Notes under the pieces: generated by a model | The model's input: the letters and a program-made list of their open reading frames with translations, nothing else | The model's database searches: none | Told to the model about the DNA's origin: nothing | Virus record (IMG/VR): IMGVR_UViG_2778261565_000018 | Span: 1-36,928 of that record | Strand: one strand, 5' to 3' | DNA: 36,928 nucleotides | DNA from: a virus | Taxonomy: Duplodnaviria; Heunggongvirae; Uroviricota; Caudoviricetes | Made by a program: the position numbers and the translations under genes | Shown: one piece after another, positions 6,437 to 34,442 of the stretch | How the letters are laid out: each line of letters opens with the position of its first letter | Position numbering within the stretch: position 1 is the first letter of the stretch

Positions 6437-6853
6437 TTATACCTCTGAATCAATATCAACCTGATGGTGAGCAATGGTTTCAACCATGAACCGGATGTGT
6501 TCTGCCATGCGCTCCTGAAACTCAACATCGTCATCAAATGCACGGGTAATGGCTTTTTTGCTGGCCCCGCAGCGTTGTAAATGATCGATGCAGAGCGATT
6601 CAAACAAATGCTGGGGCAGGCCTTTTTCCATGTCGTCTGCCAGTTCTGCCTCTTTCTCTTCACGGGCGAGCTGCTGGTAGTGACGCGCCCAGCTCTGAGC
6701 CTCAAGACGATCCTGAATGTAATAAGCGTTCATGGCTGAACTCCTGAAATAGCTGTGAAAATATCGCCCGCGAAATGCCGGGCTGATTAGGAAAACAGGA
6801 AAGGGGGTTAGTGAATGCTTTTGCTTGATCTCAGTTTCAGTATTAATATCCAT
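6437..6853 (-). CDS. gam: Gam, RecBCD inhibitor, 138 aa
   Basis: [32 protein letters not shown] matches lambda Gam. Confidence 0.97.
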
Positions 6854-6951: not shown

Positions 6952-7084
6952 TTTTTGGGACTCCTGGCTGATTAAGTATGTCGATAAGGCGTTTCCATCC
7001 GTCACGTAATTTACGGGTGATTCGTTCAAGTAAAGATTCGGAAGGGCAGCCAGCAACAGGCCACCCTGCAATGGCATATTGCAT
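6920..7084 (-). CDS. cIII: CIII (FtsH inhibitor), 54 aa
   Basis: Hand-translated [54 protein letters not shown]; overlaps kil 5' end by 32 nt. Confidence 0.85.
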   Translation of the reverse strand: MQYAIAGWPVAGCPSESLLERITRKLRDGWKRLIDILNQPGVPKNGSNTYGYPD

Positions 7085-7156
7085 GGTGTGCTCCTTATTT
7101 ATACATAACGAAAAACGCCTCGAGTGAAGCGTTATTGGTATGCGGTAACGCAGCGC

Positions 7157-9163: not shown

Positions 9164-9916
9164 TTATGCTGCAAGTCTCTTAATCCAAGTCTCTCTTTTG
9201 GAGAATGGTAGAACTTGGCTTGATTCATGGAAGAGTAAGGAGAGTTGTTGCATTTGATCACCAATTGCTTCGCTGTCTATAACAACAAATCTGTTGTTAT
9301 ACTCCTCACTTGAAGCTTTAAGATCAATTAGTTTCCCAAGCAATGAGTAAGCACTATTCCAGCTTCCTCCGTGTTTCACGCTTGATGTAAAAACGTATTT
9401 AGGTATGTCGGTTTTTATTGTTACAGGGACGGTAATTTGATGTCCACTCAAGCCATATACGTTTTCACGAAGAGAAAGTGCGTCTCTAAGCTCTGTGTGA
9501 TATAGATAATCAATAACCATACTTTCAAACTTTTCAGCTTGAACTGGCTGATACCAGTCTAACGACAAAGTTGATGCGAGTATACCAGCTCTAATTATGT
9601 TCGATGTAATCGCACCGACATCCTTTTCTGTTGCCCAAGCAATGATTTCTCCTCGAGCATTGAGTTCTGCGCCTTCTTTAAGCAGTAATTGTCGTATCTC
9701 ATCAAGTCGTTTTTTGGTAAGCGAGATCCCTCTTGCCTCCATATTCATTAAGGCATCGCATCTGTCACTAACTAAATACCTACCATTGACTTCACGGATA
9801 AAGGCACCGACATGCTCTCCATCATCACAGTAAGTGAATGGACTGATAATTCTCAAGGTCTTGCCTATTGGATGGCATTCGAAACCTAGTTGTGAGATCA
9901 CTGTTGAGCACATCAT
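9164..9916 (-). CDS. Hypothetical protein B (250 aa), distal gene of rex-slot cassette
   Basis: ORF track; ATGATG start overlaps upstream ORF stop (ATGA); no family recognised; AT-rich. Confidence 0.6.
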   Translation of the reverse strand: MMCSTVISQLGFECHPIGKTLRIISPFTYCDDGEHVGAFIREVNGRYLVSDRCDALMNMEARGISLTKKRLDEIRQLLLKEGAELNARGEIIAWATEKDVGAITSNIIRAGILASTLSLDWYQPVQAEKFESMVIDYLYHTELRDALSLRENVYGLSGHQITVPVTIKTDIPKYVFTSSVKHGGSWNSAYSLLGKLIDLKASSEEYNNRFVVIDSEAIGDQMQQLSLLFHESSQVLPFSKRETWIKRLAA

Positions 9917-10470
9917 ATTCCAAACCCCATTTGCCCCGACTCATCTTCAAGCGGTAAAGGTATTCTCCCAGAGTAAGTTATGTTCAGATGTTTACAGAAG
10001 TAATTCCAATACCCTACCAGGTCATCTGGGTTTATGTCATCTTCGATTGGAAACGCTATTCTATCACTATAGTATCCAGCTTCTTCATAGTATACATGGT
10101 AGTGAGCACCGTAAATGATATCTTGGTACTTCGGATGATCGACCTTGTAACTATTCGTGTGTTTGTCAAAGTGATAGGTATCTACCGCGAAAACCCTCTT
10201 GTTATGATAGAAAGCAATAATATTTATTTTAGGGTAAGAAATCGGGTCATCAGGTTCTGAATCCTGATCTGGTTTCCATTTCAGTTCAAACTTTAGCCCT
10301 TGTATAGGTATACAATCCTCATCCAAGGGGATGATATGAGCTTGTAGCCACATATCAGAGCGACTTGGTTTCTGTTTCCATTTAACGCCAGAAAAGTTAA
10401 CTATTTTTTTACAATAAAGTACTTTATCAACTTCTACTTGGCTTGGCTGATAATCATCTATTTTTGCCAA
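9913..10470 (-). CDS. Hypothetical protein A (up to 185 aa), proximal gene of rex-slot cassette
   Basis: ORF track; co-directional with cI, 39 nt downstream; only a TTG start at 10470 or an internal ATG near 10353; no family recognised. Confidence 0.5.
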   Translation of the reverse strand: MAKIDDYQPSQVEVDKVLYCKKIVNFSGVKWKQKPSRSDMWLQAHIIPLDEDCIPIQGLKFELKWKPDQDSEPDDPISYPKINIIAFYHNKRVFAVDTYHFDKHTNSYKVDHPKYQDIIYGAHYHVYYEEAGYYSDRIAFPIEDDINPDDLVGYWNYFCKHLNITYSGRIPLPLEDESGQMGFGI

Positions 10471-10509: not shown

Positions 10510-11169
10510 TCACCCAAACGTCTCTTCAGGCCATTGGCTGGCGATAACTTTCCCCACAACGGAACAACTCTCATTGCATGGGATCATTGGGTATTGTGGG
10601 TTTAGTGGCTGTAGAAACACCTGACCGCTATCCCTGATCAGTTTCTTGAAGGTAAATTCATCACCACCAAGTCTGGCTATGCAGAAATCGCCGGGCTCAA
10701 CAGCTTGCTCAGGGTCAACCAGAATTAACATCCCGTCAGGAAAGCTGGGTTTGGAACCTGTTGGTGCGGTCATTGAGTTACCTTCAACCTCAAGCCAGAA
10801 TGCAGAGTCACTGGCTTTTTTGGTTGTGCTTACCAATCTCTCCGCATCGCCTTTGGTAAAGGTTCTGAGTTCTGGAGAGAACATCCCAGCCTGAACATGA
10901 GAAAAAACAGGGTACTCATATTGTTTTTTAACTGGGGCCGATGAGTATTCGCCAACAGGTGAAAATGTCCCGTCGTGGTTGAATGATATGTTATCAATAC
11001 CAAGGTATTTAAACACCACACCAATATCACTAAGAGATGGATGACGAGATCCGCGCAACCAGTGTCCAATCCCACCCTGCGTCATACCTAGCTCTTCGGC
11101 TAACTTCTCTTGAGTTATGCCGAGCTCTTTCATTCTGGATCTAGCCAGTTCATACCATTTCATTTTCAT
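10510..11169 (-). CDS. cI: CI-type repressor: XRE-family HTH N-domain plus lambda-cI-identical C-terminal S24 domain
   Basis: C-terminal about 135 aa ([21 protein letters not shown]...QWPEETFG) match lambda cI; N-terminal HTH differs; start taken at MKMKWYEL, alternatives upstream. Confidence 0.9.
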
Positions 11170-11278
11170 GTCCTTATTATTACGCTTTGTACTGGAACCA
11201 TCCATGCACAATGTGTATTTTTACTTGTATTCGTAAAGTACATATTGTATTTTTATTCGTGTTTACTATGGAGGGCAT
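11170..11278 (+). promoter_or_regulatory. OR operator region with divergent pR/pRM
   Basis: Between divergent cI and cro; TTGTAT-17 bp-TATTTT candidate pR; motifs GTAAAGTACATAT and ACGCTTTGTA shared with OL. Confidence 0.5.
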
Positions 11279-13922: not shown

Positions 13923-14363
13923 ATGAAAAAACTAACCTTTGAAATTCGATCTCCAGCACATCAGCAAAACGCTATTCACGCAGTACAGCAAATCCTTCCA
14001 GACCCAACCAAACCAATCGTAGTAACCATTCAGGAACGCAACCGCAGCTTAGACCAAAACAGGAAGCTATGGGCCTGCTTAGGTGACGTCTCTCGTCAGG
14101 TTGAATGGCATGGTCGCTGGCTGGATGCAGAAAGCTGGAAGTGTGTGTTTACCGCAGCATTAAAGCAGCAGGATGTTGTTCCTAACCTTGCCGGGAATGG
14201 CTTTGTGGTAATAGGCCAGTCAACCAGCAGGATGCGTGTAGGCGAATTTGCGGAGCTATTAGAGCTTATACAGGCATTCGGTACAGAGCGTGGCGTTAAG
14301 TGGTCAGACGAAGCGAGACTGGCTCTGGAGTGGAAAGCGAGATGGGGAGATCGGGCTGCATGA
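13923..14363 (+). CDS. ninB: NinB (Orf family recombination protein), 146 aa
   Basis: MKKLTFEIRSPAHQQNAIHAVQQ matches lambda NinB. Confidence 0.9.
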   Translation: MKKLTFEIRSPAHQQNAIHAVQQILPDPTKPIVVTIQERNRSLDQNRKLWACLGDVSRQVEWHGRWLDAESWKCVFTAALKQQDVVPNLAGNGFVVIGQSTSRMRVGEFAELLELIQAFGTERGVKWSDEARLALEWKARWGDRAA

Positions 14364-14887
14364 CTATCAAATCAAATACGCCAGCACACGACAAGGACTG
14401 CTGGCAAACGCCGCTTTGGCTTTTTGATGCACTGGATATTGAGTTTGGATTCTGGCTGGATTCGGCAGCGAGCGACAAAAATGCTCTGTGTGCTCACTGG
14501 CTAACTGAGGCCGACGACGCGCTCAATTCTGAGTGGGTAAGCCACGGTGCAATCTGGAATAACCCACCGTACAGCAATATCAGGCCGTGGGTGGAAAAAG
14601 CCGCTGAGCAGTGCATACAACAGCGACAGACGGTAGTTATGCTTGTGCCAGAGGATATGTCAGTCGGATGGTTCAGCAAGGCTCTGGAGAGTATTGACGA
14701 AGTTCGCATCATCACTGATGGACGGATTAATTTTATCGAACCATCGACAGGGCTGGAGAAGAAGGGAAACAGCAAAGGTTCCATGCTGCTGATTTGGCGA
14801 CCGTTCATCAATCCTCGACGGATGTTTACTACCGTATCCAAAGCGGCATTGATGGCGATCGGGCAGGGCGTCAGGAGGGCAGCATGA
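14360..14887 (+). CDS. Phage-type DNA N6-adenine methyltransferase (Dam-like, orphan), 175 aa
   Basis: NPPY catalytic motif ([10 protein letters not shown]); occupies the lambda ninC/ninD slot; ATGA coupling with ninB. Confidence 0.8.
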
Positions 14888-15814: not shown

Positions 15815-16482
15815 ATATCTACGAAAGAATTGATGGCAGCAAATACCGAAATATTTGGGTAGTTGGCGATCTGCACGGATGCTACACGAACCTGATGAAC
15901 AAACTGGATACGATTGGATTCGACAACAAAAAAGACCTGCTTATCTCGGTGGGCGATTTGGTTGATCGTGGTGCAGAGAACGTTGAATGCCTGGAATTAA
16001 TCACATTCCCCTGGTTCAGAGCTGTACGTGGAAACCATGAGCAAATGATGATTGATGGCTTATCAGAGCGTGGAAACGTTAATCACTGGCTGCTTAATGG
16101 CGGTGGCTGGTTCTTTAATCTCGATTACGACAAAGAAATTCTGGCTAAAGCTCTTGCCCATAAAGCAGAAGAACTTCCGTTAATCATCGAACTGGTGAGC
16201 AAAGGTAAAAAATATGTCATCTGCCACGCCGATTATCCTTGTGACGAATACGAATTTGGAAAGCCAGTTGATCATCAGCAGGTAATCTGGAACCGCGAAC
16301 GAATCAGCAACTCACAAGACGGGATCGTTAAAGAAATTAAAGGCGCGGACACGTTTATCTTTGGTCATACGCCAGCAGTGAAGCCACTCAAATTTGCCAA
16401 CCAGATGTATATCGATACTGGGGCAGTGTTCTGCGGAAATCTCACATTGATTCAGGTACAGGGAGAAGGCGCGTGGGCATAA
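15811..16482 (+). CDS. ninI: NinI Ser/Thr protein phosphatase (lambda PPase), 223 aa
   Basis: GDLHG and GNHE metallophosphatase motifs; recognised as lambda phosphatase. Confidence 0.9.
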
Positions 16483-16961
16483 GAGAACTAAACCTCACCA
16501 AAGAACAGCATGAGTGGCTGAATGGCTGGCTTGAACTGTGGGGCGCATGGGTTTATTCAGGTCGTCTGGAAAAGCGCATGAGCAGCGTAATAGCGACGTT
16601 CATGGAGAGCGTAGAGCCGGGAAGAGTTATGACAAGGCCAATGTGTAATGATGATGATGGAATGTTGATTTCTCAGGTCGTCGATTCCGTCATGTACATT
16701 GACAAGAAAGCCTTTGGAATCCTCCTCAGCTACTACGCTCATGGCTCTTCCAAGCACGCCATTGCATCTTACTATCATCGCGTCGCAAGACCTCGCAAGA
16801 TGTTATGCCGTGGCGGCGGGCGCATTCAAAAACCATCGCTCGCAACCTGTCGACGGGAAGTTGACGAAATCCTTAATGCCTCGTTGTTTATGATTTACCC
16901 GGTTCTGGATAGTGCGTTTAAAAATCGGAAACGTGTAGAGAAAATTAAACATGTAGCATAG
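16473..16961 (+). CDS. Q: Late-gene antiterminator Q (non-lambda type), about 162 aa
   Basis: Position between nin genes and lysis cassette; not lambda Q; GTG start overlapping ninI stop, start uncertain. Confidence 0.6.
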
Positions 16962-16966
16962 AACGT

Positions 16967-17048
16967 GTTGACATCATTGAGCAAATGAGCAACACTATTG
17001 GCATAAGCTGCCGTTAGTGACTCTTAAGTTGCAACGGTGGCTTTTTTT
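16967..17048 (+). promoter_or_regulatory. Putative late promoter PR' (TTGACA -35 at 16967-16972) and short-leader terminator (17007-17048)
   Basis: Consensus -35 just after Q; hairpin GCUGCCGUU-17 nt loop-AACGGUGGC followed by T7; -10 not cleanly defined. Confidence 0.45.
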
Positions 17049-17052
17049 ATTT

Positions 17053-17127
17053 GGGTCAGTCGTATAAAGGTCATTACGGAAGGCTGTTAACCTTCTTATC
17101 GTGGTTCGAGTCCACGCTGTCCCGCCA
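17053..17127 (+). tRNA. tRNA-like gene, anticodon GUU (Asn) by manual fold; one U-U mismatch in acceptor stem
   Basis: Hand-folded cloverleaf: 5-bp anticodon stem GAAGG/CCTTC, loop CTGTTAA, T-arm CGTGG-TTCGAGT-CCACG, 3' GCCA. Confidence 0.5.
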
Positions 17128-17132
17128 AATAT

Positions 17133-17208
17133 GCTGGTTTAGCTCCAATGGTAGAGCAGTCGCCTTGTAAGCGAATGGGTAGCGGTTCAAGTCCGTTAAC
17201 CAGCACCA
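17133..17208 (+). tRNA. tRNA, anticodon UGU (Thr) by manual fold, encoded CCA
   Basis: Perfect 7-bp acceptor stem GCTGGTT/AACCAGC, D-arm GCTC/GAGC, anticodon loop CTTGTAA, T-loop TTCAAGT, ACCA end. Confidence 0.65.
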
Positions 17209-17450
17209 TAACTGAGCCGTAGCCACTGGCTATCCTGAATTCATCAGTGATAGTTACGCTGCGGCATTCTACGCATGACCTTCGTGAAAGCGGGTGGCAA
17301 GAGGCTGCGCTAACAACCTCCTGCCGTTTTGCCCGTGCATATCGGTCACGAACAAATCTGATTACTAAACACAGTAGCCTGGATTTGTTCTATCAGTAAT
17401 CGACATTATTCCTAATTAAATAGAGCAAATCCCCTTATTGTGGGTAAGAC

Positions 17451-17774
17451 ATGAAGATGCCAGAAAAACATGACCTGTTAGCCGCCATTCTCGCGGCAAA
17501 GGAACAAGGCATCGGGGCAATCCTTGCGTTTGCAATGGCGTACCTTCGCGGCAGATATAATGGCGGTGCGTTTACAAAAACAGTAATCGACGCAACGATG
17601 TGCGCCATTATCGCCTGGTTCATTCGTGACCTTCTCGACTTCGCCGGACTAAGTAGCAATCTCGCTTATATAACGAGCGTGTTCATCGGCTACATCGGTA
17701 CTGACTCGATTGGTTCGCTTATCAAACGCTTCGCTGCTAAAAAAGCCGGAGTAGAAGATGGTGGAAATCAATAA
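17451..17774 (+). CDS. S: Holin/antiholin S (S107/S105 dual start), 107 aa
   Basis: [22 protein letters not shown] matches lambda S with Met1-Lys2-Met3 dual-start motif. Confidence 0.95.
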
Positions 17775-27697: not shown

Positions 27698-30600
27698 ATG
27701 AGTGTGGCGACATTACGTGAACTGATTATTAAAATCTCGGCAAATTCCCGGTCATTCCAGTCAGAGATCTCCCGGGCTTCGCGTATGGGGCAGGATTACT
27801 ACCGTACCATGCAGAACGGAGGCCGACAGTCCGCTGCTGCATCCCGTGAAATGCGGCGTGCACTGGCAGAAGTGACGGATCAGATAAATACAGCTAAATC
27901 TTCGGCACTGAACATGGCGGGGGCATTTGCCGGGGCTTTTGCTACCGGTCATCTTATTTCTCTCGTCGATGAGTGGAATTCAGTAAATGCCCGTCTGAAG
28001 CAGGCCTCACAGTCCAGTGATGATTTTCAGTCATCACAGCGTGAATTAATGGCGATCAGCCAGAGAACGGGGACGGCGTTTTCTGATAACGCCAGCCTTT
28101 TTGCCCGTTCTGCAGCTTCCATGCGGGAGTATGGTTACAGTTCTGAGGAGGTACTGAAAGTCACCGAGGCGATCTCCACGGGCCTGAAATTATCCGGTGC
28201 CAGTACAGCAGAAGCCAGTTCGGTGATCACGCAGTTCAGTCAGGCACTGGCGCAGGGAGTGCTGCGCGGTGAAGAGTTTAACTCGGTGAATGAGAACGGC
28301 GATCGTGTTATTCGTGCGCTGGCTGCGGGAATGGGGGTTGCCCGTAAGGATCTGAAGGCCATGGCGGATAACGGAAAACTGACCGCCGATAAGGTTGTTC
28401 CTGCACTGATTAGTCAGCTTGGGGCGTTGCGTGATGAATATGCAGCAATGCCTGATACGGTTTCATCCTCTGCAACCAAAGTTGAAAACGCCTTTATGGC
28501 CTGGGTTGGTGGTGCGAACGAGGCAAGCGGAGTGACGAAGACGCTCTCCGGTGTGCTGAATGGTATTGCAGGCAATATTGACACCGTGGCAACCGCTGCT
28601 GGTGCTCTGGTTGCCGTCGGGGTAGCCCGATATTTTGGCAATATGGCGTCGTCTGCTGGATCTGCAACTGCCGGATTAATTACTGCAGCCAGAAACGAAG
28701 TGGCTCTTGCTGAAGTGCAACTTCGGGGGACACAGATAGCAACCGCCAGGGCGCGTGCGGCGGTTTATCGTGCGCAACAGGCGGTTGTTGCTGCTCGCGG
28801 TACCGAAAGGCAGGCCGCAGCAGAAGCGAAGCTGACAGCTGCCCAGGTGTCACTTACCCGTAATATTGCGGCCAGAACAGCGGCACAGACAACGCTGAAT
28901 AATGTTACGTCAGTGGGGAGTCGTTTATTAAGTGGCGCGCTGGGGCTGGTTGGTGGTGTGCCGGGACTCGTCATGCTGGGGGCTGCGGCCTGGTACACGA
29001 TGTATCAGAATCAGGAGCAGGCCAGAGAATCTGCACGACAGTATGCCGCAACAATCGACGAAATTCGCCAGAAAACGTCGGCAATGTCGCTTCCTGAAGC
29101 GTCAGATAATGAGGAAAAGACGCGACAGGCACTGAAGGAGCAAAACAGGTTAATTGACGAGCAGAAAAGTAAGATTAAATCCTTACAGGAAAAAATTGCT
29201 GGCTATCAGTATGTGCTGGCAAACCCGGGCTGGACAACCGATAACGGTTTTATGATTAACCACATGACGTCGGTAAAAACTGTCACAGAAGGGCTTGCAG
29301 AAGCAACAAATCAACTGGCAGTTGAACAGTCTCGCCTCACTCAAATGCAGGGCAAAGCGCAATCCATTCAGGATGTGCTTGCCGGGCTGGAGGAGCGACG
29401 GGTGGCGTTGATCCGTCAACAGGCAGCGGAACAAAACAAAGCGTATCAGTCCCTGTTGATCATGAATGGGCAGCATACCGAGTTTAATCGCCTTCTCGGG
29501 CTCGGTAATGAATTACTTCAGCAGCGACAGGGGCTGGTGAATGTACCGTTACGGCTACCACAGGCAACCCTGGATGATAAACAGCAGACCGCACTGAATA
29601 ACAGCGAGCGCGAACTGGCTCTGTCCCGCCTGAAGGGGGAAGCTCGTGAGCGTGCCCGCCTGGGTTATGCTGCGGATGATCTCGGCTTTGTGGGAGAGGC
29701 GTATCAGACAGCAAGACTGAATTATATAAATAACTCACTGGATGCATGGCGAAATAACCAGGCAAATAAACCCAAAGCGCATAAAAAGACCGAAGCGGAA
29801 AAAATAGAAGATACTTATAAGCAACTGATTAAACAGCAAAAAGAGCAAATAGCACTGGCAGGGCAGAATACTGAACTGGCTAAGATGAAATATCAGGTCA
29901 GCCAGGGCGAATTATCAACCCTGTCAGAAGCGCAGAAAAAAACGCTTTTGCAGAATGCAGCACTCATCGACCAGAAAAAGATTCGTGAGCAGCTTGCTGC
30001 GTATGAGAGCAGTCTGGCGGACAGTAATGCCAGTGTCAGAGCATCAAATGAGGCTCAGTTACTGGGATATGGTGAAGGCTCACGGATGCGTGAACGACTT
30101 CAGGAAATGTGGAGCATCCGGCAGGAGTTTGAGCAGAAAAATAACGAGCTACTGAGACAGTATCAGGCCGGAGAAATTGAAGAAGCCCTGTGGAAACAGG
30201 AAAAATCTCTGAATGAAAAATATCTGGAAGAGCGTCTCAGCGATCAGCAGGATTATTATGCAAAGGCTGATGCTTTACGCAGTAACTGGAATGCCGGACT
30301 CCAGGAGGGACTGACGAACTGGGCAGACAGTGCCACCGATTATGCTTCGCAGGCGGCAGATGCTGTCGTTTCCACTATGGACGGGCTGGTATCAAATATT
30401 TCCGATGCACTGGCCGGAAATGTTGTGGACTGGAGAAACTGGGGGAGTTCAATTCTCCAGGAAGTTTCAAAAATTCTGATGAACGCTGCCATCGTTAACG
30501 GGCTGAAGTCACTTTCCAAAAGCATGTCCGGTGCCGGAGGATGGCTTGGTACAGTCGGCGACTGGCTTTCCGGTGCAGTGGCAAACGCAAAAGGTGGTGT

Positions 30601-30943
30601 TTATACATCGGCAAATCTGAGTGCTTACAGTAACACCATTGTGGATACCCCGACGTATTTTGCTTTTGCGAAAGGTGCCGGGCTGATGGGCGAGGCCGGG
30701 CCTGAAGCAATCATGCCACTGACACGGGCAGCGGACGGCTCTCTTGGGGTCAGGGCCATTGGAAATGTGAATGGTGGCGGTGGATTTGTTTATTCTCCCG
30801 TGTATCACATCAGCATTCAGAATCAAGGGAGCAATGGCGAGATAGATGCGCGCTCAGCCAGGGGACTGGTGGATCTGATCGACAGCAGGGTTGTGTCAAT
30901 TATGCAGTCATCACGTCGGGACGGAGGATTATGCAGTGCCTGA
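27698..30943 (+). CDS. Tail tape measure protein, 1081 aa
   Basis: Very long, Ala/Gln-rich coiled-coil ORF after G/GT. Confidence 0.9.
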   Translation: MSVATLRELIIKISANSRSFQSEISRASRMGQDYYRTMQNGGRQSAAASREMRRALAEVTDQINTAKSSALNMAGAFAGAFATGHLISLVDEWNSVNARLKQASQSSDDFQSSQRELMAISQRTGTAFSDNASLFARSAASMREYGYSSEEVLKVTEAISTGLKLSGASTAEASSVITQFSQALAQGVLRGEEFNSVNENGDRVIRALAAGMGVARKDLKAMADNGKLTADKVVPALISQLGALRDEYAAMPDTVSSSATKVENAFMAWVGGANEASGVTKTLSGVLNGIAGNIDTVATAAGALVAVGVARYFGNMASSAGSATAGLITAARNEVALAEVQLRGTQIATARARAAVYRAQQAVVAARGTERQAAAEAKLTAAQVSLTRNIAARTAAQTTLNNVTSVGSRLLSGALGLVGGVPGLVMLGAAAWYTMYQNQEQARESARQYAATIDEIRQKTSAMSLPEASDNEEKTRQALKEQNRLIDEQKSKIKSLQEKIAGYQYVLANPGWTTDNGFMINHMTSVKTVTEGLAEATNQLAVEQSRLTQMQGKAQSIQDVLAGLEERRVALIRQQAAEQNKAYQSLLIMNGQHTEFNRLLGLGNELLQQRQGLVNVPLRLPQATLDDKQQTALNNSERELALSRLKGEARERARLGYAADDLGFVGEAYQTARLNYINNSLDAWRNNQANKPKAHKKTEAEKIEDTYKQLIKQQKEQIALAGQNTELAKMKYQVSQGELSTLSEAQKKTLLQNAALIDQKKIREQLAAYESSLADSNASVRASNEAQLLGYGEGSRMRERLQEMWSIRQEFEQKNNELLRQYQAGEIEEALWKQEKSLNEKYLEERLSDQQDYYAKADALRSNWNAGLQEGLTNWADSATDYASQAADAVVSTMDGLVSNISDALAGNVVDWRNWGSSILQEVSKILMNAAIVNGLKSLSKSMSGAGGWLGTVGDWLSGAVANAKGGVYTSANLSAYSNTIVDTPTYFAFAKGAGLMGEAGPEAIMPLTRAADGSLGVRAIGNVNGGGGFVYSPVYHISIQNQGSNGEIDARSARGLVDLIDSRVVSIMQSSRRDGGLCSA

Positions 30944-31277
30944 GTCTGAAGTTTTTAACTGGATCCCCCGCGAGGGGATGGAGACGACACGAAAGCCATC
31001 TGTTATTACGGTAAAGTTCGGTGACGGATATGAACAGCGACGGGCTGGTGGTCTGAATGCAGATCTGAAAACGTTTAAACCGGTATTTCGTGTCACGGAT
31101 GAATATTCCCGTGCCGCGCTGGACAGTTTTTTATCCCGTCATGCCGGGGTTCGTGCTTTTTTGTGGCGTCCGCCAAAACACAACAGGACTGTCCGGGTTG
31201 TCTGCAGGGAGTGGAGCATTTCGGATAATGCCATGTATACCGATTTTAACTGTACCTTTGAAGAGGTCACTCACTGA
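30936..31277 (+). CDS. M: Minor tail protein M (start ambiguous: GTG 30936 preferred, ATG 30975 alternative)
   Basis: FGDGYEQR and FLWRPP motifs as in lambda M; GGAGG 8 nt before GTG. Confidence 0.8.
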   Translation: MPESEVFNWIPREGMETTRKPSVITVKFGDGYEQRRAGGLNADLKTFKPVFRVTDEYSRAALDSFLSRHAGVRAFLWRPPKHNRTVRVVCREWSISDNAMYTDFNCTFEEVTH

Positions 31278-31975
31278 TGCAGGATATACAGCAGGAAACA
31301 CTCAATGAGTGCACTAAAACGGAGCAATCCGCGCTGGTCGTGCTCTGGGAAATTGATCTGACAGAGGTCGGCGGAGATCGTTATTTCTTCTGTAATGAGC
31401 AGAACGAAAAAGGTGAACCAGTCACCTGGCAGGGGCGGCAGTATCAGGCCTATCCCATTCAGGGAAGTGGATTTGAGATGAACGGCAAAGGAGCCAGTGC
31501 AAGGCCAACGCTGAAAGTCTCTAATCTGCACGGCATGGTCACCGGGATGGCGGAAGACCTGCAGAGTCTGGTCGGCGGAACGGTGGTCAGGCGTAAGGTT
31601 TACGCCCGTTTTCTGGATGTGGTGAACTTCGTCAACGGAAACAGCGAAGCCGATCCAGAGCAGGAGGTGATCAGCCGCTGGCGCATCGAGCAGTGCAGCG
31701 AACTGAGCGCGGTGAGTGCCTCTTTTGTACTGTCCACGCCGACTGAAACGGATGGCGCTGTTTTTCCGGGACGTATCATGCTGGCCAACACCTGCACCTG
31801 GACCTATCGCGGCGATGAGTGCGGTTATAGCGGTCCGGCGGTCGCGGATGAATATGACCAGCCGACGTCCGATATCACGAAGGATAAATGCAGCAAATGC
31901 CTGAGCGGCTGTAAGTTTCGCAATAACGTCGGCAACTTTGGCGGCTTCCTTTCCATTAACAAACTTTCGCAGTAA
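31277..31975 (+). CDS. L: Minor tail protein L, 232 aa
   Basis: Recognised as lambda L; C-terminal Cys cluster. Confidence 0.9.
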   Translation: MQDIQQETLNECTKTEQSALVVLWEIDLTEVGGDRYFFCNEQNEKGEPVTWQGRQYQAYPIQGSGFEMNGKGASARPTLKVSNLHGMVTGMAEDLQSLVGGTVVRRKVYARFLDVVNFVNGNSEADPEQEVISRWRIEQCSELSAVSASFVLSTPTETDGAVFPGRIMLANTCTWTYRGDECGYSGPAVADEYDQPTSDITKDKCSKCLSGCKFRNNVGNFGGFLSINKLSQ

Positions 31976-31984
31976 TGGATTATG

Positions 31985-32006
31985 CCCACCATCAGGTGGG
32001 TTTTTT
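31985..32006 (+). terminator. Intrinsic terminator after L
   Basis: CCCACC-atca-GGTGGG followed by T6. Confidence 0.6.
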
Positions 32007-32366
32007 GTTGTCATCACCAAGATATTTCTGCTTATATTCCTCTGAAAGAGGAATTGATCTTTCAACCATGCTAATAAGTTTATCTACTTGTTTTTTCTGT
32101 TTTTCTATGATTTCTAAAAGTTGAGGTATAAGTTTTTCATGCTCGCTTTTATCATATTTTCTGTTTATCGCATCTAGTTGTTCTTTAAACTGCTGAACGA
32201 TAGGACCATCCTCCGGCCCAAAATCACGACAAACACGAATCGCCAACTCAAGCAGAGTGACAATCTCAGCATTCATAGAACGATTATTTTGTTTTGATGA
32301 CGCTTCAATTATTTTTTTTAATTCAACAGGAAGCCTAATCCGAAGTTGAGGGTCTTCTCTACTCAT
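31992..32366 (-). CDS. Mnt-like ribbon-helix-helix repressor with C-terminal extension, 124 aa
   Basis: N terminus MSREDPQLRIRLPVELKKIIEASSKQNNRSMNAEIVTLL resembles P22 Mnt RHH; divergent from the arc/ant operon. Confidence 0.65.
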   Translation of the reverse strand: MSREDPQLRIRLPVELKKIIEASSKQNNRSMNAEIVTLLELAIRVCRDFGPEDGPIVQQFKEQLDAINRKYDKSEHEKLIPQLLEIIEKQKKQVDKLISMVERSIPLSEEYKQKYLGDDNKKPT

Positions 32367-32409
32367 ACCATTAGTCCAAACAGGAAAAATTCACAATAAG
32401 TAAATTATG

Positions 32410-32472
32410 CCCCACGGTGGGGTTGACTTCAATGACGCACGGTGTGACAATTTTGATTGCCCCACAGTGAGG
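32410..32472 (+). promoter_or_regulatory. Divergent promoter/operator region: palindrome CCCCACGGTGGGG (32410-32422), TTGACT -35 (32423-32428), second half-palindrome GCCCCACAGTGAGG (32459-32472)
   Basis: Perfect 13-bp palindrome next to a -35 hexamer; related copy 50 bp downstream near the arc-like gene RBS. Confidence 0.55.
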
Positions 32473-32489
32473 CTATTTAAGGAGTGGAG

Positions 32490-32657
32490 ATGGAAAAAGC
32501 AAAAGACATGTATCAACGCAAGGTTCGTTTCCCAGAGGATGTAAGGAAGGCGATTGAAAGAAATGGAGAAAAAGAGTGTCGACAGTTCAACACGGAACTT
32601 ATTTATCAATTGAGAAAAGTGTACGGACTGATTGGAGAGAAGAATGCTAGGACATAA
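32490..32657 (+). CDS. Arc-like ribbon-helix-helix repressor, 55 aa
   Basis: Hand-translated MEKAKDMYQRKVRFPEDVRKAIERNGEKECRQFNTELIYQLRKVYG resembles P22 Arc; AAGGAG RBS 5 nt before ATG. Confidence 0.65.
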   Translation: MEKAKDMYQRKVRFPEDVRKAIERNGEKECRQFNTELIYQLRKVYGLIGEKNART

Positions 32658-32726
32658 AAATAGCGAAGCCCGACAGTGCGCGAACACAAATCGGGCTTCT
32701 ATGTCAGTAACTTCCAAGGAACTAAC
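32655..32726 (-). ncRNA. Predicted Sar-like antisense RNA covering the ant RBS
   Basis: Minus-strand promoter TTGATA-17 bp-TATACT (plus-strand 32733-32761) with -10 overlapping the ant start; minus-strand terminator is the perfect 9-bp hairpin at 32665-32699 plus T-rich tail. Confidence 0.5.
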
Positions 32727-32729
32727 GAA

Positions 32730-33650
32730 ATGAGTATAGCAACAGCGGTATCTACTATCAACGTGCCATTCCACGGCGCAGAGCTTTATGTCGTCAATCA
32801 CAACGGCGAACCGTACACCCCAATGAAACCTATCGTTGAGGGAATGGGTATGGATTGGGCTTCACAGTTTACAAAGTTAAAACAAAGATTTGCTAAAGGT
32901 ATTGTGGAAATCGCAATACCTTCAGTTGGCGGTATGCAGACCATGATTTGCCTTGCTTTGCGTAAACTGAATGGTTGGCTCCAAACCATCAGTCCTAACA
33001 AAGTCCGCCCTGAAATCCGCGAGAAGGTAATCCAGTATCAGGAAGAGTGTGACGATGTGCTCTACGAGTACTGGACTAAAGGCCATGTGATTAACCCGCG
33101 CAAAGCTAAAAAGGCGTTGCCGGGTAAAATCACCACTGAACAGCAGGAAGCCATTAAACAACTCGTCATGAGTCGCGGTCAGTCTCTGCCAAAAGAAAAA
33201 CAGGCTAAGGCGATGATCACCATGTGGTCGTCACTGAAATCCCATTTTGGATGTTCGTACAAAGAAATTAGTGAGGAGCAGTTTACCGAAGCACTGTCAC
33301 TTGCTGCTCGCGTTCCGCTTGAAGGTGAGTTCATTGGCAAACAAGAGAAGAAAACCAACGAGCTTTCCGCAAAAGAAGCAAACAGCCTTGTATGGCTGTG
33401 GGATTATGCTAACCGCTCACAGGCATTATTCCGCGAATTGTATCCAGCGCTAAAGCAAATTCAATCGAACTATTCCGGCAGATGTTACGACTACGGCCAT
33501 GAGTTCTCGTATGTTATTGGAATGGCGAGAGACGTTTTAATCAATCACACACGAGATGTTGATATTAATGAGCCAGATGGACCAACGAATCTTTCCGCAT
33601 GGGTAAGGCTTAAGAGCAAAGAGTTGCCGCCTTCACTGCATCACTACTAA
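32730..33650 (+). CDS. ant: Antirepressor Ant (P22 Ant-like N-terminal domain), 306 aa
   Basis: N-terminal region (LYVVNHNGEPYTPMKPIVEGMGMDW) resembles P22-type antirepressor; AAGGA RBS; downstream of arc-like gene. Confidence 0.7.
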   Translation: MSIATAVSTINVPFHGAELYVVNHNGEPYTPMKPIVEGMGMDWASQFTKLKQRFAKGIVEIAIPSVGGMQTMICLALRKLNGWLQTISPNKVRPEIREKVIQYQEECDDVLYEYWTKGHVINPRKAKKALPGKITTEQQEAIKQLVMSRGQSLPKEKQAKAMITMWSSLKSHFGCSYKEISEEQFTEALSLAARVPLEGEFIGKQEKKTNELSAKEANSLVWLWDYANRSQALFRELYPALKQIQSNYSGRCYDYGHEFSYVIGMARDVLINHTRDVDINEPDGPTNLSAWVRLKSKELPPSLHHY

Positions 33651-33668
33651 CAGATTACCAACGAAATG

Positions 33669-33692
33669 ACCCAGCCTCGGCTGGGTTTTTTA
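33669..33692 (+). terminator. Intrinsic terminator after ant
   Basis: ACCCAGC-ctcg-GCTGGGT followed by T5. Confidence 0.6.
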
Positions 33693-33704
33693 TCAGGAGT
33701 TCTC

Positions 33705-34442
33705 ATGCTCTATAGCAATATATTGGCACACGCCCGGCGGTGTGCGCCTGCGGAGTCGTGCGGCTTCGTGGTGAGAACGCCGGAGGGGGAGCGGTATATC
33801 CCTTGTGTGAATATCTCTGCAGAGCCGGAGGCGTATTTTCGTATTGCACCGGAAGACTGGCTGCGGGCAGAGATGCAGGGGGAGATTGTGGCGCTGGTCC
33901 ACAGCCACCCCGGTGGTCTGCCCTGGCTGAGTGAGGCTGACAGGCGGCTGCAGGTGCAGAGCGATTTGCCTTGGTGGCTGGTCTGCCGGGGTGAGATTCA
34001 TAAATTCCGCTGTGTGCCGCATCTTACCGGGCGGCGCTTTGAGCACGGGGTGACGGACTGTTACACGCTGTTCCGGGATGCTTATCATCTGGCGGGGATT
34101 GAGATGCCGGATTTTCATCGCGGGGATGACTGGTGGCGTCACGGTCAGAATCTCTATCTGGATAATCTGGAGGCCACAGGGCTGTATCAGGTGCCGTTGT
34201 CAGCGGCGCAGCCGGGCGATGTGCTGCTGTGCTGTTTTGGTTCATCGGTGCCGAATCATGCCGCCATTTACTGTGGTGATGGCGAGCTGCTGCACCATAT
34301 TCCTGAACAACTGAGCAAACGAGAGAGGTATACCGACAAATGGCAGCGACGCACACACTCCCTCTGGCGTCACCGGGCATGGCACGCATCTGCCTTTACG
34401 GGGATTTGCAACGATTTGGCCGCCGCATCGACCTTCGTGTGA
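33705..34442 (+). CDS. K: Tail assembly protein K (MPN/JAB plus NlpC/P60-like)
   Basis: Recognised lambda K motifs (HARRCAP..ESCGF, HSHPGG, DCYTLFRDAY); start after AGGAG; the track start at 33666 lies inside the terminator. Confidence 0.85.
   Translation: MLYSNILAHARRCAPAESCGFVVRTPEGERYIPCVNISAEPEAYFRIAPEDWLRAEMQGEIVALVHSHPGGLPWLSEADRRLQVQSDLPWWLVCRGEIHKFRCVPHLTGRRFEHGVTDCYTLFRDAYHLAGIEMPDFHRGDDWWRHGQNLYLDNLEATGLYQVPLSAAQPGDVLLCCFGSSVPNHAAIYCGDGELLHHIPEQLSKRERYTDKWQRRTHSLWRHRAWHASAFTGICNDLAAASTFV

Follow-up and report, generated by a model that had tools for sequence, protein, structure and literature searches.

The prophage under study carries, at the head of its late operon, two genes which on sequence-based prediction encode functional elongator tRNAs, tRNA-Asn(GUU) as well as tRNA-Thr(UGU), with processing and aminoacylation being likewise predicted. 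The best explanation for the whole arrangement, and one that we regard as reasonably probable, is that these are functional late-operon tRNAs of which the Thr tRNA (and the Asn tRNA) would replace host tRNAs cut by nucleases. Both tRNA genes were already known and annotated, and the sole new element of the present analysis is a testable suggestion on the Asn gene. Phage tRNAs are now seen as countermeasures to tRNA-cutting defence systems, and the Thr tRNA described here belongs to the handful of tRNAs from temperate phages for which experiments directly support a role in counter-defence.

The two tRNA genes and their place in the late operon

The window, by which we mean the whole stretch of 36,928 nucleotides (36.9 kb) that was analysed, was annotated from Pfam and represents a prophage which encodes λ-type exo, bet and gam and HK97-like head and tail genes. 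The prophage is integrated in the λ attB region adjoining ybhC, its λ-type integrase being encoded at 1419-2489, and the tRNA cassette is located approximately 15 kb away from the attachment site, within the late operon. When the whole window was compared with the E. coli collection, the top match extended over just 61-64% of the first 24 kb, and the exact mosaic prophage is therefore absent from that collection. The features of relevance are the following:

6437-6853, minus strand: λ Gam, a RecBCD inhibitor (Pfam PF06064 Gam, 209.5 bits)
16473-16961, plus strand: late antiterminator Q of the phage 21 type, counterpart of phage 21 Q (Pfam PF06530 Phage_antitermQ, 88 bits)
16968-17003, plus strand: late promoter pR', with -35 at 16968-16973, -10 at 16991-16996 and start site at 17003 (from phage 21, OL657228)
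16976-16991, plus strand: Q-binding element, placed after its annotation in phage 21 (curated record OL657228)
17005-17052, plus strand: late-leader intrinsic terminator tR' (hairpin and U-tract), identical to the phage 21 terminator
17053-17127, plus strand: tRNA-Asn(GUU), 75 nt, G73 and CCA encoded (ARAGORN and Rfam)
17128-17132, plus strand: inter-tRNA spacer AATAT, 5 nt (read from the sequence)
17133-17208, plus strand: tRNA-Thr(UGU), 76 nt, A73 and CCA encoded, equal to 'tRNA-Thr21' (ARAGORN and Rfam)
17209-17450, plus strand: untranslated stretch from the tRNAs to the holin, in which phage 21 homology stops near 17270 (mosaic joint)
17451-17774, plus strand: λ-type holin S (ORF; homologues annotated in Sf6 and HK446)
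17758-18234, plus strand: R-type endolysin (ORF; homologues annotated in Sf6 and HK446)
18231-18698, plus strand: Rz with embedded Rz1 (ORF; homologues annotated in Sf6 and HK446)

Analysis of the entire window with ARAGORN identified these two tRNA genes and no others, both on the plus strand. The first-pass annotation of this DNA had described two cloverleaf sequences at 17053-17208, 5 nt apart, with anticodons GUU (Asn) and UGU (Thr); ARAGORN and Rfam gave identical boundaries, and ARAGORN made the same anticodon calls. The T-loops that it had listed as TTCGAGT and TTCAAGT (UUCGAGU in the Asn tRNA and UUCAAGU in the Thr tRNA) and the encoded CCA ends are likewise seen in the sequence. Against Rfam model RF00005, for which the gathering score is 29, the Asn tRNA scored 55.3 bits (E-value 1.9e-9) and the Thr tRNA 61.5 bits (E-value 4e-11). 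These values lie 12-17 bits below those of host asnT (72.6 bits) and thrU (73.8 bits) and are similar to those of the genuine host genes tyrU (53.4 bits) and glyT (64.9 bits).

Each of the two tRNAs departs from fully canonical stems or from A14, a base that is nearly universal in tRNAs. The Rfam alignment marks a non-canonical U4·U69 in the acceptor stem of the Asn tRNA and a D-stem of 3 bp owing to U13·U22, thereby bearing out the U-U acceptor mismatch and the 3-bp D-stem already pointed out in the first-pass annotation. Additional features that were not mentioned in that annotation are C9 and a variable loop of 4 nt in the Asn tRNA and, in the Thr tRNA, C14 and a G27·A43 mismatch, likewise marked in the Rfam alignment, which leaves 4 bp of the anticodon stem (GUCGC/GCGAA). 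The anticodon stem of the Asn tRNA, GAAGG/CCUUC, has its full 5 bp. The elements by which E. coli AsnRS identifies its substrate are G34, U35 and U36 together with the discriminator G73, and all four are present in the phage Asn tRNA, the anticodon loop of which (CUGUUAA) is that of host asnT; by these identity elements it is a predicted substrate of AsnRS. Similarly, the identity elements of ThrRS, G1-C72, C2-G71, G35 and U36, are all present in the phage Thr tRNA, and its anticodon loop (CUUGUAA) is that of host thrU.

Base for base, promoter pR' with its Q-binding element and start site, and tR', are those of phage 21, at an offset of 15,449 and with no indels, the phage 21 terminator annotation being based on PMID 1704887. 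In the curated record of that phage these elements directly precede its own Asn and Thr tRNA genes. The end of tR' at 17052 is one base ahead of the Asn gene, and the minimum free energy fold of the RNA from 17003 to 17215 consists of a hairpin at 17005-17043, then UUUUUUUAUUU, then two cloverleaves, so that the position directly past the late-leader terminator, as originally proposed, is upheld by both the phage 21 features and the fold. The position between Q, named 'antiterminator Q family protein' by PGAP in identical E. coli loci, and the lysis cassette is equally confirmed by the Pfam match of the former and the λ-type holin gene that opens the latter. A scan of 16800-17600 for consensus sigma-70 promoters and terminators found nothing, which for the promoter is due to its non-consensus -10 hexamer (AACACT) and for the terminator to a loop longer than the scan allows. 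Relative to phage 21 the mismatches are concentrated from 17271 on, and the rest of the untranslated stretch, past ~17270, is by BLAST coverage Sf6-/HK446-type sequence located upstream of the λ-type S gene. The lysis cassette (17451-18698) comprises the first protein genes on the late transcript.

From these positions RNA polymerase would start at pR' (17003) and halt at tR' (17005-17052) unless modified by Q, and homology, sequence and position together suggest that upon Q antitermination the tRNAs would be the first genes to be transcribed. Release of the two tRNAs would be expected to proceed by RNase P and 3'-end processing, CCA being already encoded, with the 5-nt spacer presumably cut away in the process.

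Selection on the cloverleaves

The two tRNA genes are real and under selection, and their non-canonical pairs are maintained features. Among 82 distinct haplotypes nucleotide diversity was 0.010 for the Asn gene, a value that is biased downwards as the search pattern fixed 24 Asn bases, and 0.032 for the Thr gene, which is free of such bias, as compared to 0.14 for the spacer and 0.22-0.33 for the flanks. Across approximately 125 viral contigs, representing 21 distinct alleles per tRNA, compensatory changes on both sides of a stem were observed at 5 base pairs in each tRNA, a number matched by just 0-2 of 500 shuffles, while slid-register controls gave 0-2. In the Asn tRNA 4:69 is unpaired in 20 of the 21 alleles and 13:22 in all 21, with G27-C43 being paired in 21/21, and in the Thr tRNA 27:43 is unpaired (G27·A43) in 20/21. 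Pairs next to 4:69 and 13:22 in these Asn stems, by contrast, show compensatory double changes. Being conserved among alleles, the non-canonical pairs of both tRNAs and C14 are to be regarded as variants rather than as signs of decay.

It was considered whether one or both genes might be decaying pseudo-tRNAs which hitchhike with the Q-lysis module, a reading to which the Rfam scores (55.3 and 61.5 bits, 12-17 bits short of the 72.6 and 73.8 of host asnT and thrU), the mismatches in three stems together with Thr C14, and the true lack of a recognisable Thr gene in ST64T-type phages all lend something. The compensatory stem changes, a diversity 10-30 times below that of the flanks, mismatches that are conserved instead of scattered, and the fact that the Thr sequence works in vivo (PMC12445682; bioRxiv 10.64898/2026.07.10.737580) speak against it, and we deem it highly improbable. 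The pseudo-tRNA reading was rejected on low diversity, compensatory pairs and conserved mismatches, and for the Thr gene it is largely refuted. The first-pass annotation had left it open whether the Asn gene is a variant or a pseudo-tRNA; of these the latter is unsupported, given the maintained mismatches, the compensatory changes, the AsnRS elements and the 55-bit Rfam score. That annotation was thus right on identity, too cautious on functionality and out of date on function.

Distribution and composition of the cassette

Both tRNAs are 100% identical to genes of phage 21, Sf6 and HK446, and the same cassette is present in phage 21, Sf6, SfI, BTP1 and HK446. In the Sf6 record both are annotated as similar to phage 21, whose tRNA genes date, in the account given within the SfI paper (PMC3636060), to a 1991 late-region study. 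Of the complete E. coli genomes, 5,426 in number, 369 (~7%) matched the 156-nt Asn-Thr pair alone, whereas a 501-nt query including flanks gave 1,387/5,426; among the matches listed, the E. coli genomes carry RefSeq labels of tRNA-Asn and tRNA-Thr for the two genes. At an identity of at least 95% the pair occurs in ~42 phage records, and also in a few phage-plasmids. The spacer differs among relatives, being AATAT in the window and AACAT in phages 21 and Sf6. The pair was found 3' of differing Q types (21-type in the window, λ-type in HK446) and 5' of differing lysis genes, and it therefore crosses mosaic joints as one small module.

For a survey of cassette composition, 127 loci with the Asn gene, almost all of them on IMG/VR viral contigs, were collected by means of an Asn anticodon-arm pattern. 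A pattern made up of T-arms alone (GGTTCGAGTCC N55-80 GGTTCAAGTCC), run against viral and genome contigs, yielded, among the matches listed, neighbouring tRNA genes of a generic kind from across the bacteria. Some relatives of the cassette add Arg(UCU), Phe(GAA) or Gly(UCC), as is seen from the arrangements among the 127 loci:

Asn-Thr: 96 loci
Asn-Phe-Thr-Arg(UCU): 6 loci
Asn-Phe-Thr: 3 loci
Asn-Thr-Arg: 2 loci
versions with Gly(UCC): 10 loci
Asn alone: 7 loci

A Lys(UUU) gene was found neither in the window nor in any of the 127 surveyed Asn-carrying loci.

The Thr tRNA and the P2 OLD nuclease

Govande et al. 2025 (PMC12445682) showed for phage 21 that its 'tRNA-Thr21' confers protection from P2 OLD, a Toprim nuclease that cuts the anticodon stem. 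Thr6 and Thr21 are the OLD-resistant replacement tRNAs described in that study. Thr21 is cleavage-resistant and has a short anticodon stem and the changes C28U/G42A, and OLD resistance of the Thr tRNA requires both the alteration of the CNG motif and the shortening of the anticodon stem (PMC12445682). The ACA codon is decoded by tRNA-ThrU only, and phage Thr(UGU) tRNAs rescue cells in that ThrU is replaced and ACA decoding restored; host Asn(GUU) is cut by OLD more slowly than ThrU (PMC12445682). When rescued by the Thr tRNA alone, Old+ Gam+ cells still form small colonies (PMC12445682). OLD is triggered by Gam (PMC12445682; bioRxiv 10.64898/2026.07.10.737580). In a preprint of July 2026 (bioRxiv 10.64898/2026.07.10.737580) the Thr(UGU) tRNA of HK446 brought the plating of OLD-sensitive phages near to the wild-type level, which extra host Thr tRNA did not, while λ was not rescued by the Thr tRNA alone and HK446 also needs, or at least has, the protein inhibitor Oad2; its authors doubt that the HK446 tRNA is chiefly anti-OLD, and Asn is not named among the main OLD targets. 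The preprint credits HK446 with 'a single' tRNA (bioRxiv 10.64898/2026.07.10.737580), where ARAGORN found both the Asn and the Thr tRNA. As the window Thr tRNA is identical to those of phage 21 and HK446, the OLD results apply directly to it.

Host tRNA sequences for a comparison of anticodon arms were fetched from K-12. In both tRNAs the anticodon loops of host and phage are identical and the stems alone differ, as set out below by positions 28-30/40-42, positions 36-41 and the state of 27:43:

host thrU: CUG/CAG; UAAUCA; 27:43 paired (5 bp)
phage Thr: UCG/CGA; UAAGCG; 27:43 a G·A mismatch
host asnT: CGG/CCG; UAAUCC; 27:43 paired (5 bp)
phage Asn: AAG/CUU; UAACCU; 27:43 paired (5 bp)

The phage Thr tRNA thus has the anticodon of host thrU, an altered CNG and an unpaired 27:43. 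That it resists P2 OLD and stands in for host ThrU was established by others on an identical sequence, and the same is predicted for the copy in the window. OLD, set off by the prophage's own Gam, an early product, would cut the anticodon stem of host tRNA-ThrU, and the phage Thr(UGU) tRNA would resist this cleavage and take over ACA decoding, such that late proteins would still be made. A Gam-encoding prophage may in this manner be able to translate its late proteins in a P2 lysogen. Approximately 49 ACA codons are present in the late genes, of which the holin gene has 2, the major capsid gene 4 and the tape measure gene 15.

Codon usage and alternative explanations

The classical view of phage tRNAs is that they boost codons which are used more by the phage than by the host, and the first-pass annotation had held of phage tRNAs at this position in lambdoid phages that they aid late-gene or moron translation, and had called for a codon-usage comparison. 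This was run against late and early genes, expressed per thousand codons, with 41 K-12 genes as host reference:

ACA: late 10.2, early 15.6, host 5.4 (late 1.9-fold, p = 9e-4)
Asn AAC + AAU: late 44.2, early 41.7, host 37.7 (late 1.17-fold, p = 0.05)

For early genes the ACA odds ratio relative to the host was 2.9 (p = 3e-10). Late genes are also enriched 5-fold in AGA, 8-fold in AGG and 2-fold in AUA (the latter 6-fold in early genes), and ARAGORN found no matching tRNA for AGA, AGG or AUA in the window. The proposed support of late translation is upheld in part only, to a modest degree for ACA and hardly for Asn, and the more strongly enriched AGA, AGG and AUA codons are left without a tRNA. 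Codon supply is a partial explanation for the Thr gene and a poor one for the Asn gene.

As the only function of the cassette, codon supply appears unlikely. It draws on the enrichment of ACA in both late (1.9) and early (2.9) genes and on the location at the head of the late operon, as well as on the same ACA bias being reported in the SfI paper (PMC3636060) and on ACA being read by tRNA-ThrU only (PMC12445682). The SfI genome paper agrees on codon supply as a partial account (PMC3636060), but its authors left the Asn gene unexplained. The ACA bias, however, is strongest in early genes, which are translated before late-operon tRNAs appear; Asn codons are up by just 1.17-fold (p = 0.05); and AGA, AGG and AUA are enriched equally or more without a tRNA in the window. 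E. coli has several Asn tRNA genes. Furthermore, in OLD assays the phage Thr tRNA protected whereas additional host ThrU did so barely or not at all (PMC12445682; bioRxiv 10.64898/2026.07.10.737580), and sequence therefore matters, not dose alone. A modest additional supply of ACA-reading tRNA may well be a secondary benefit of the cassette.

Two further explanations were considered. One assigns the tRNA block a service to RNA or genome, either as a site at which RNase P processing would part the lysis mRNA from the terminator leader, or in the form of a joint for mosaic recombination; the block is indeed kept across Q types (21-type, and λ-type in HK446) and holins, and mosaic breakpoints at ~17043 and ~17270 flank it, but such a role would be a by-product of any conserved tRNA, and it leaves unexplained both the conservation of anticodon and identity elements and the recurrence of Asn and Thr in the unrelated contexts of P1, N4 and T5, on which grounds we hold it to be very improbable. 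Many prophages use tRNA genes as integration sites, and the other explanation is that the cassette makes up for a tRNA gene of the host that was impaired when the prophage integrated, as has been proposed for HK446 (bioRxiv 10.64898/2026.07.10.737580). The carriers SfI and the DX6 prophage adjoin thrW, in keeping with this; thrW, however, encodes Thr(CGU) and not UGU and is annotated as intact in strain DX6, and the carriers examined show no consistent disruption of thrU or an asn gene. The prophage studied here is at λ attB by ybhC with no tRNA gene involved, and a cassette ~15 kb from the attachment site and in the late operon would be expressed unlike a host tRNA gene. Compensation at the integration site was rejected as the prophage sits at ybhC/λ attB, and its probability is in our view negligible.

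A candidate role for the Asn tRNA

Among functional late-operon tRNAs that would replace nuclease-cut host tRNAs, the Asn tRNA is the less understood partner: its significance was considered 'not clear' in 2013 (SfI paper, PMC3636060), our literature search for a link of the lambdoid Asn gene with OLD or PARIS found none, and both recent OLD studies overlooked the phage Asn tRNA. We tentatively propose, at somewhat less than even confidence, that it may be a nuclease-resistant replacement for host tRNA-Asn against OLD-family nucleases, i.e. the same kind of stand-in for host tRNA-Asn as the Thr tRNA is for ThrU. The paired CNG that constitutes the OLD motif is lost on both strands in the phage Asn and Thr tRNAs. 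The phage Asn tRNA has the anticodon of host Asn and an altered CNG, and its 27:43 stays paired.

A second nuclease is of relevance, as AriB of the PARIS system cuts host Lys(UUU) and Thr(UGU), and secondarily Asn(GUU), at 40|41 within U36-A-A-U-C|N (Belukhina et al. 2025, PMC12409363). In tRNA-Lys a change of U39 abolishes AriB cleavage and a change at position 41 reduces it (PMC12409363), and in the phage Asn and Thr tRNAs the AriB-site positions 39 and 41 are both changed as compared to the host. The Lys(UUU), Thr(UGU) and Asn(GUU) tRNAs of T5 jointly neutralise PARIS (PMC11464382, PMC12409363). Relative to this T5-type anti-PARIS set the cassette is incomplete, with Thr and Asn altered at 39/41 and Lys(UUU) missing. 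Bypass of B185 PARIS requires Lys(UUU) (PMC12409363), and because it has no Lys(UUU) the cassette is unable alone to beat B185 PARIS. With comparable reserve, and again below even confidence, we suggest that the Asn-Thr tandem may constitute a Q-switched two-tRNA counter-defence cassette against the OLD-family Toprim tRNases P2 OLD and PARIS AriB, in which the oddities of the Asn tRNA (G31-C39, U4·U69 and U13·U22) would act as anti-determinants. The missing Lys(UUU), the failure of Thr alone to rescue λ, the presence of Oad2 in HK446 and the doubts of the preprint's authors count against this suggestion, as they do against the best explanation given at the outset.

Asn(GUU) and Thr(UGU) co-occur in P1 (in tandem), N4, T5, the T4-like phage teqdroes and the Klebsiella phage Mulock, and the paired CNG is missing from the Asn and Thr tRNAs of these phages, save for the Mulock-type Asn and the P1 Thr. 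This pairing of Asn(GUU) with Thr(UGU) in independent coliphage lineages argues for the Asn tRNA as a replacement, as does the place of host Asn(GUU) among the secondary targets of OLD as well as of AriB. Against it stands the 5-bp anticodon stem, whereas the Thr tRNA required shortening as well as the CNG change (PMC12445682). A Mulock-type Asn allele, with C28-G42 and CAG/CUG, restores the CNG on both strands at ~17 of the ~125 loci, which likewise weighs against the proposal, and the preprint bioRxiv 10.64898/2026.07.10.737580 omits Asn from the main OLD targets. If the two-tRNA cassette were to hold true, it would account for the co-travel of Asn and Thr in P1, N4, T5 and lambdoid phages, and lambdoid phages would carry a two-component anti-nuclease kit with the Asn tRNA as a resistant stand-in for host tRNA-Asn.

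Comparison with known systems

The closest known system is that of phage 21, in which both tRNAs, the promoter, the Q-binding element and the terminator are identical and occupy the same slot between Q and the lysis genes; it differs from the window by one spacer base (AACAT versus AATAT), and past ~17270 by a pinholin where the window has a λ-type holin; the structural genes of the window, moreover, are HK97-like. An equivalent place downstream of Q in a lambdoid phage, with the late promoter/terminator on one side and late genes on the other, is taken by the ileZ-argN-argO set of Stx phages of the 933W type, whose tRNAs carry rare-codon anticodons (Ile AUA, Arg AGA/AGG) that suit the idea of codon supply, an idea to which Asn(GUU) of the window is, in contrast, ill-suited. 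A 1997 paper on ileX is cited in the SfI genome paper (PMC3636060).

In T5, which is lytic and has about 24 tRNAs, two of the three anticodons of relevance are common to the window, position 39 being changed in both phages. At positions 36-41 T5 has UAAGCA and UAAGUU, the window UAAGCG and UAACCU, and the host UAAUCA and UAAUCC. The tRNA sequences of T5 and the window are unrelated, however, and the window has a two-gene late-operon cassette without Lys(UUU). P1 shares with the window both anticodons and the Asn-Thr order, its genes being 2 nt apart, but its Asn tRNA is unrelated, the genes are located in the context of the C1-controlled ban operon region, and in the P1 Thr tRNA neither the CNG pair nor the 5-bp stem is lost. 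In the Asn-Ser-Thr array of N4 the Asn tRNA is similarly unrelated to that of the lambdoid phages, whereas the Thr tRNA is 86% identical to that of the window and has the same acceptor stem.

The tRNA pair and its relatives

The Asn gene of the window recurs in HK446 (L003), where ARAGORN found an identical tRNA-Asn(GUU) gene at 1511-1585, directly upstream of tRNA-Thr(UGU). The 2026 preprint (10.64898/2026.07.10.737580) credits HK446 with a single tRNA. At position 14 of tRNA an A, which pairs with U8 in the tertiary fold, is almost universal, whereas the lambdoid Thr gene has C14 (window position 17146). Among lambdoid Thr alleles position 14 is C, U or G, in contrast to the related Thr gene of phage N4, which has A at this position. 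According to the literature, the lambdoid tRNA-Thr is functional despite C14.

Where the cassette continues into a Gly(UCC) gene, the Thr slot between Asn and Gly is occupied by a hybrid tRNA-like sequence, composed of the 5' part of phage Thr joined to an anticodon arm and 3' half that resemble host thrU, the tRNA-Thr(UGU) gene of K-12. The hybrid lies at 481-556 of the extracted regions in L351, L256, L262, L316, L318, L330, L339 and L338. Its anticodon stem comprises 3 bp only (ACUGA/UCAUC), and ARAGORN rejects the hybrid. L349 carries a clean chimera, with the 5' half from phage Thr and the 3' half from host thrU. The adjacent Gly(UCC) tRNA carries an unusual GUAU...UUAC D-arm, which it shares with phage Asn.

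In ST64T-type phages (ST64T itself, L247, and L331) the Asn gene is intact. The second gene, at 1281-1349 in ST64T, resembles a tRNA but has diverged, and its anticodon loop has 4 nt. It scores 42.1 bits against Rfam, and ARAGORN makes no call on it. The sequence is a dead tRNA-Thr gene or else something different.

The T4-like phage teqdroes (L353) encodes a tRNA-Asn(GUU) at 1533-1606 with the anticodon stem AUCGC/GCGAU, which has a UCGC/GCGA core in common with the lambdoid Thr(UGU) stem (GUCGC/GCGAA). This common core may reflect convergence onto a sequence that avoids the nucleases.

Other genes of the prophage

An Rfam match confirms that a λ-type cIII lies where the recombination region starts:

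7039-7097, minus strand: Lambda_thermo (cIII thermoregulator) RNA element, 88.5 bits

In the slot held by rexAB in λ, the window instead has a gene pair adjoining the repressor:

9164-9916, minus strand: candidate defence gene, PDC-M24 component match (PADLOC)
9913-10470, minus strand: candidate defence gene, PDC-M24 component match (PADLOC)
10510-11211: cI-like repressor

For the PADLOC candidate defence system PDC-M24, the match to the B component has E = 6e-10 and that to the A component E = 5e-4. Pfam returned DUF1828 and DUF6978 and nothing else, and the two genes are possibly a prophage-encoded defence pair.

The tail operon is broken up within 31271-33650, and no L-like tail gene was identified in it:

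27698-30943: tape measure, upstream of the interruption
30891-31277: minor tail protein M, after the tape measure
31271-32065, minus strand: unknown ORF, first in the interruption
32676-33650: P22-type antirepressor-like ORF (Pfam P22_AR_N/C), second in the interruption
33666-34442: tail K-like gene, next after the antirepressor-like ORF

Two further genes were assigned:

14300-14887, plus strand: phage Dam-type N6-adenine methyltransferase (Pfam PF05869, 216 bits), in the nin region
18741-19091, plus strand: HNH endonuclease, directly upstream of the small terminase

An HNH endonuclease ahead of the small terminase is typical of HK97-like packaging modules, and the window has the same arrangement.
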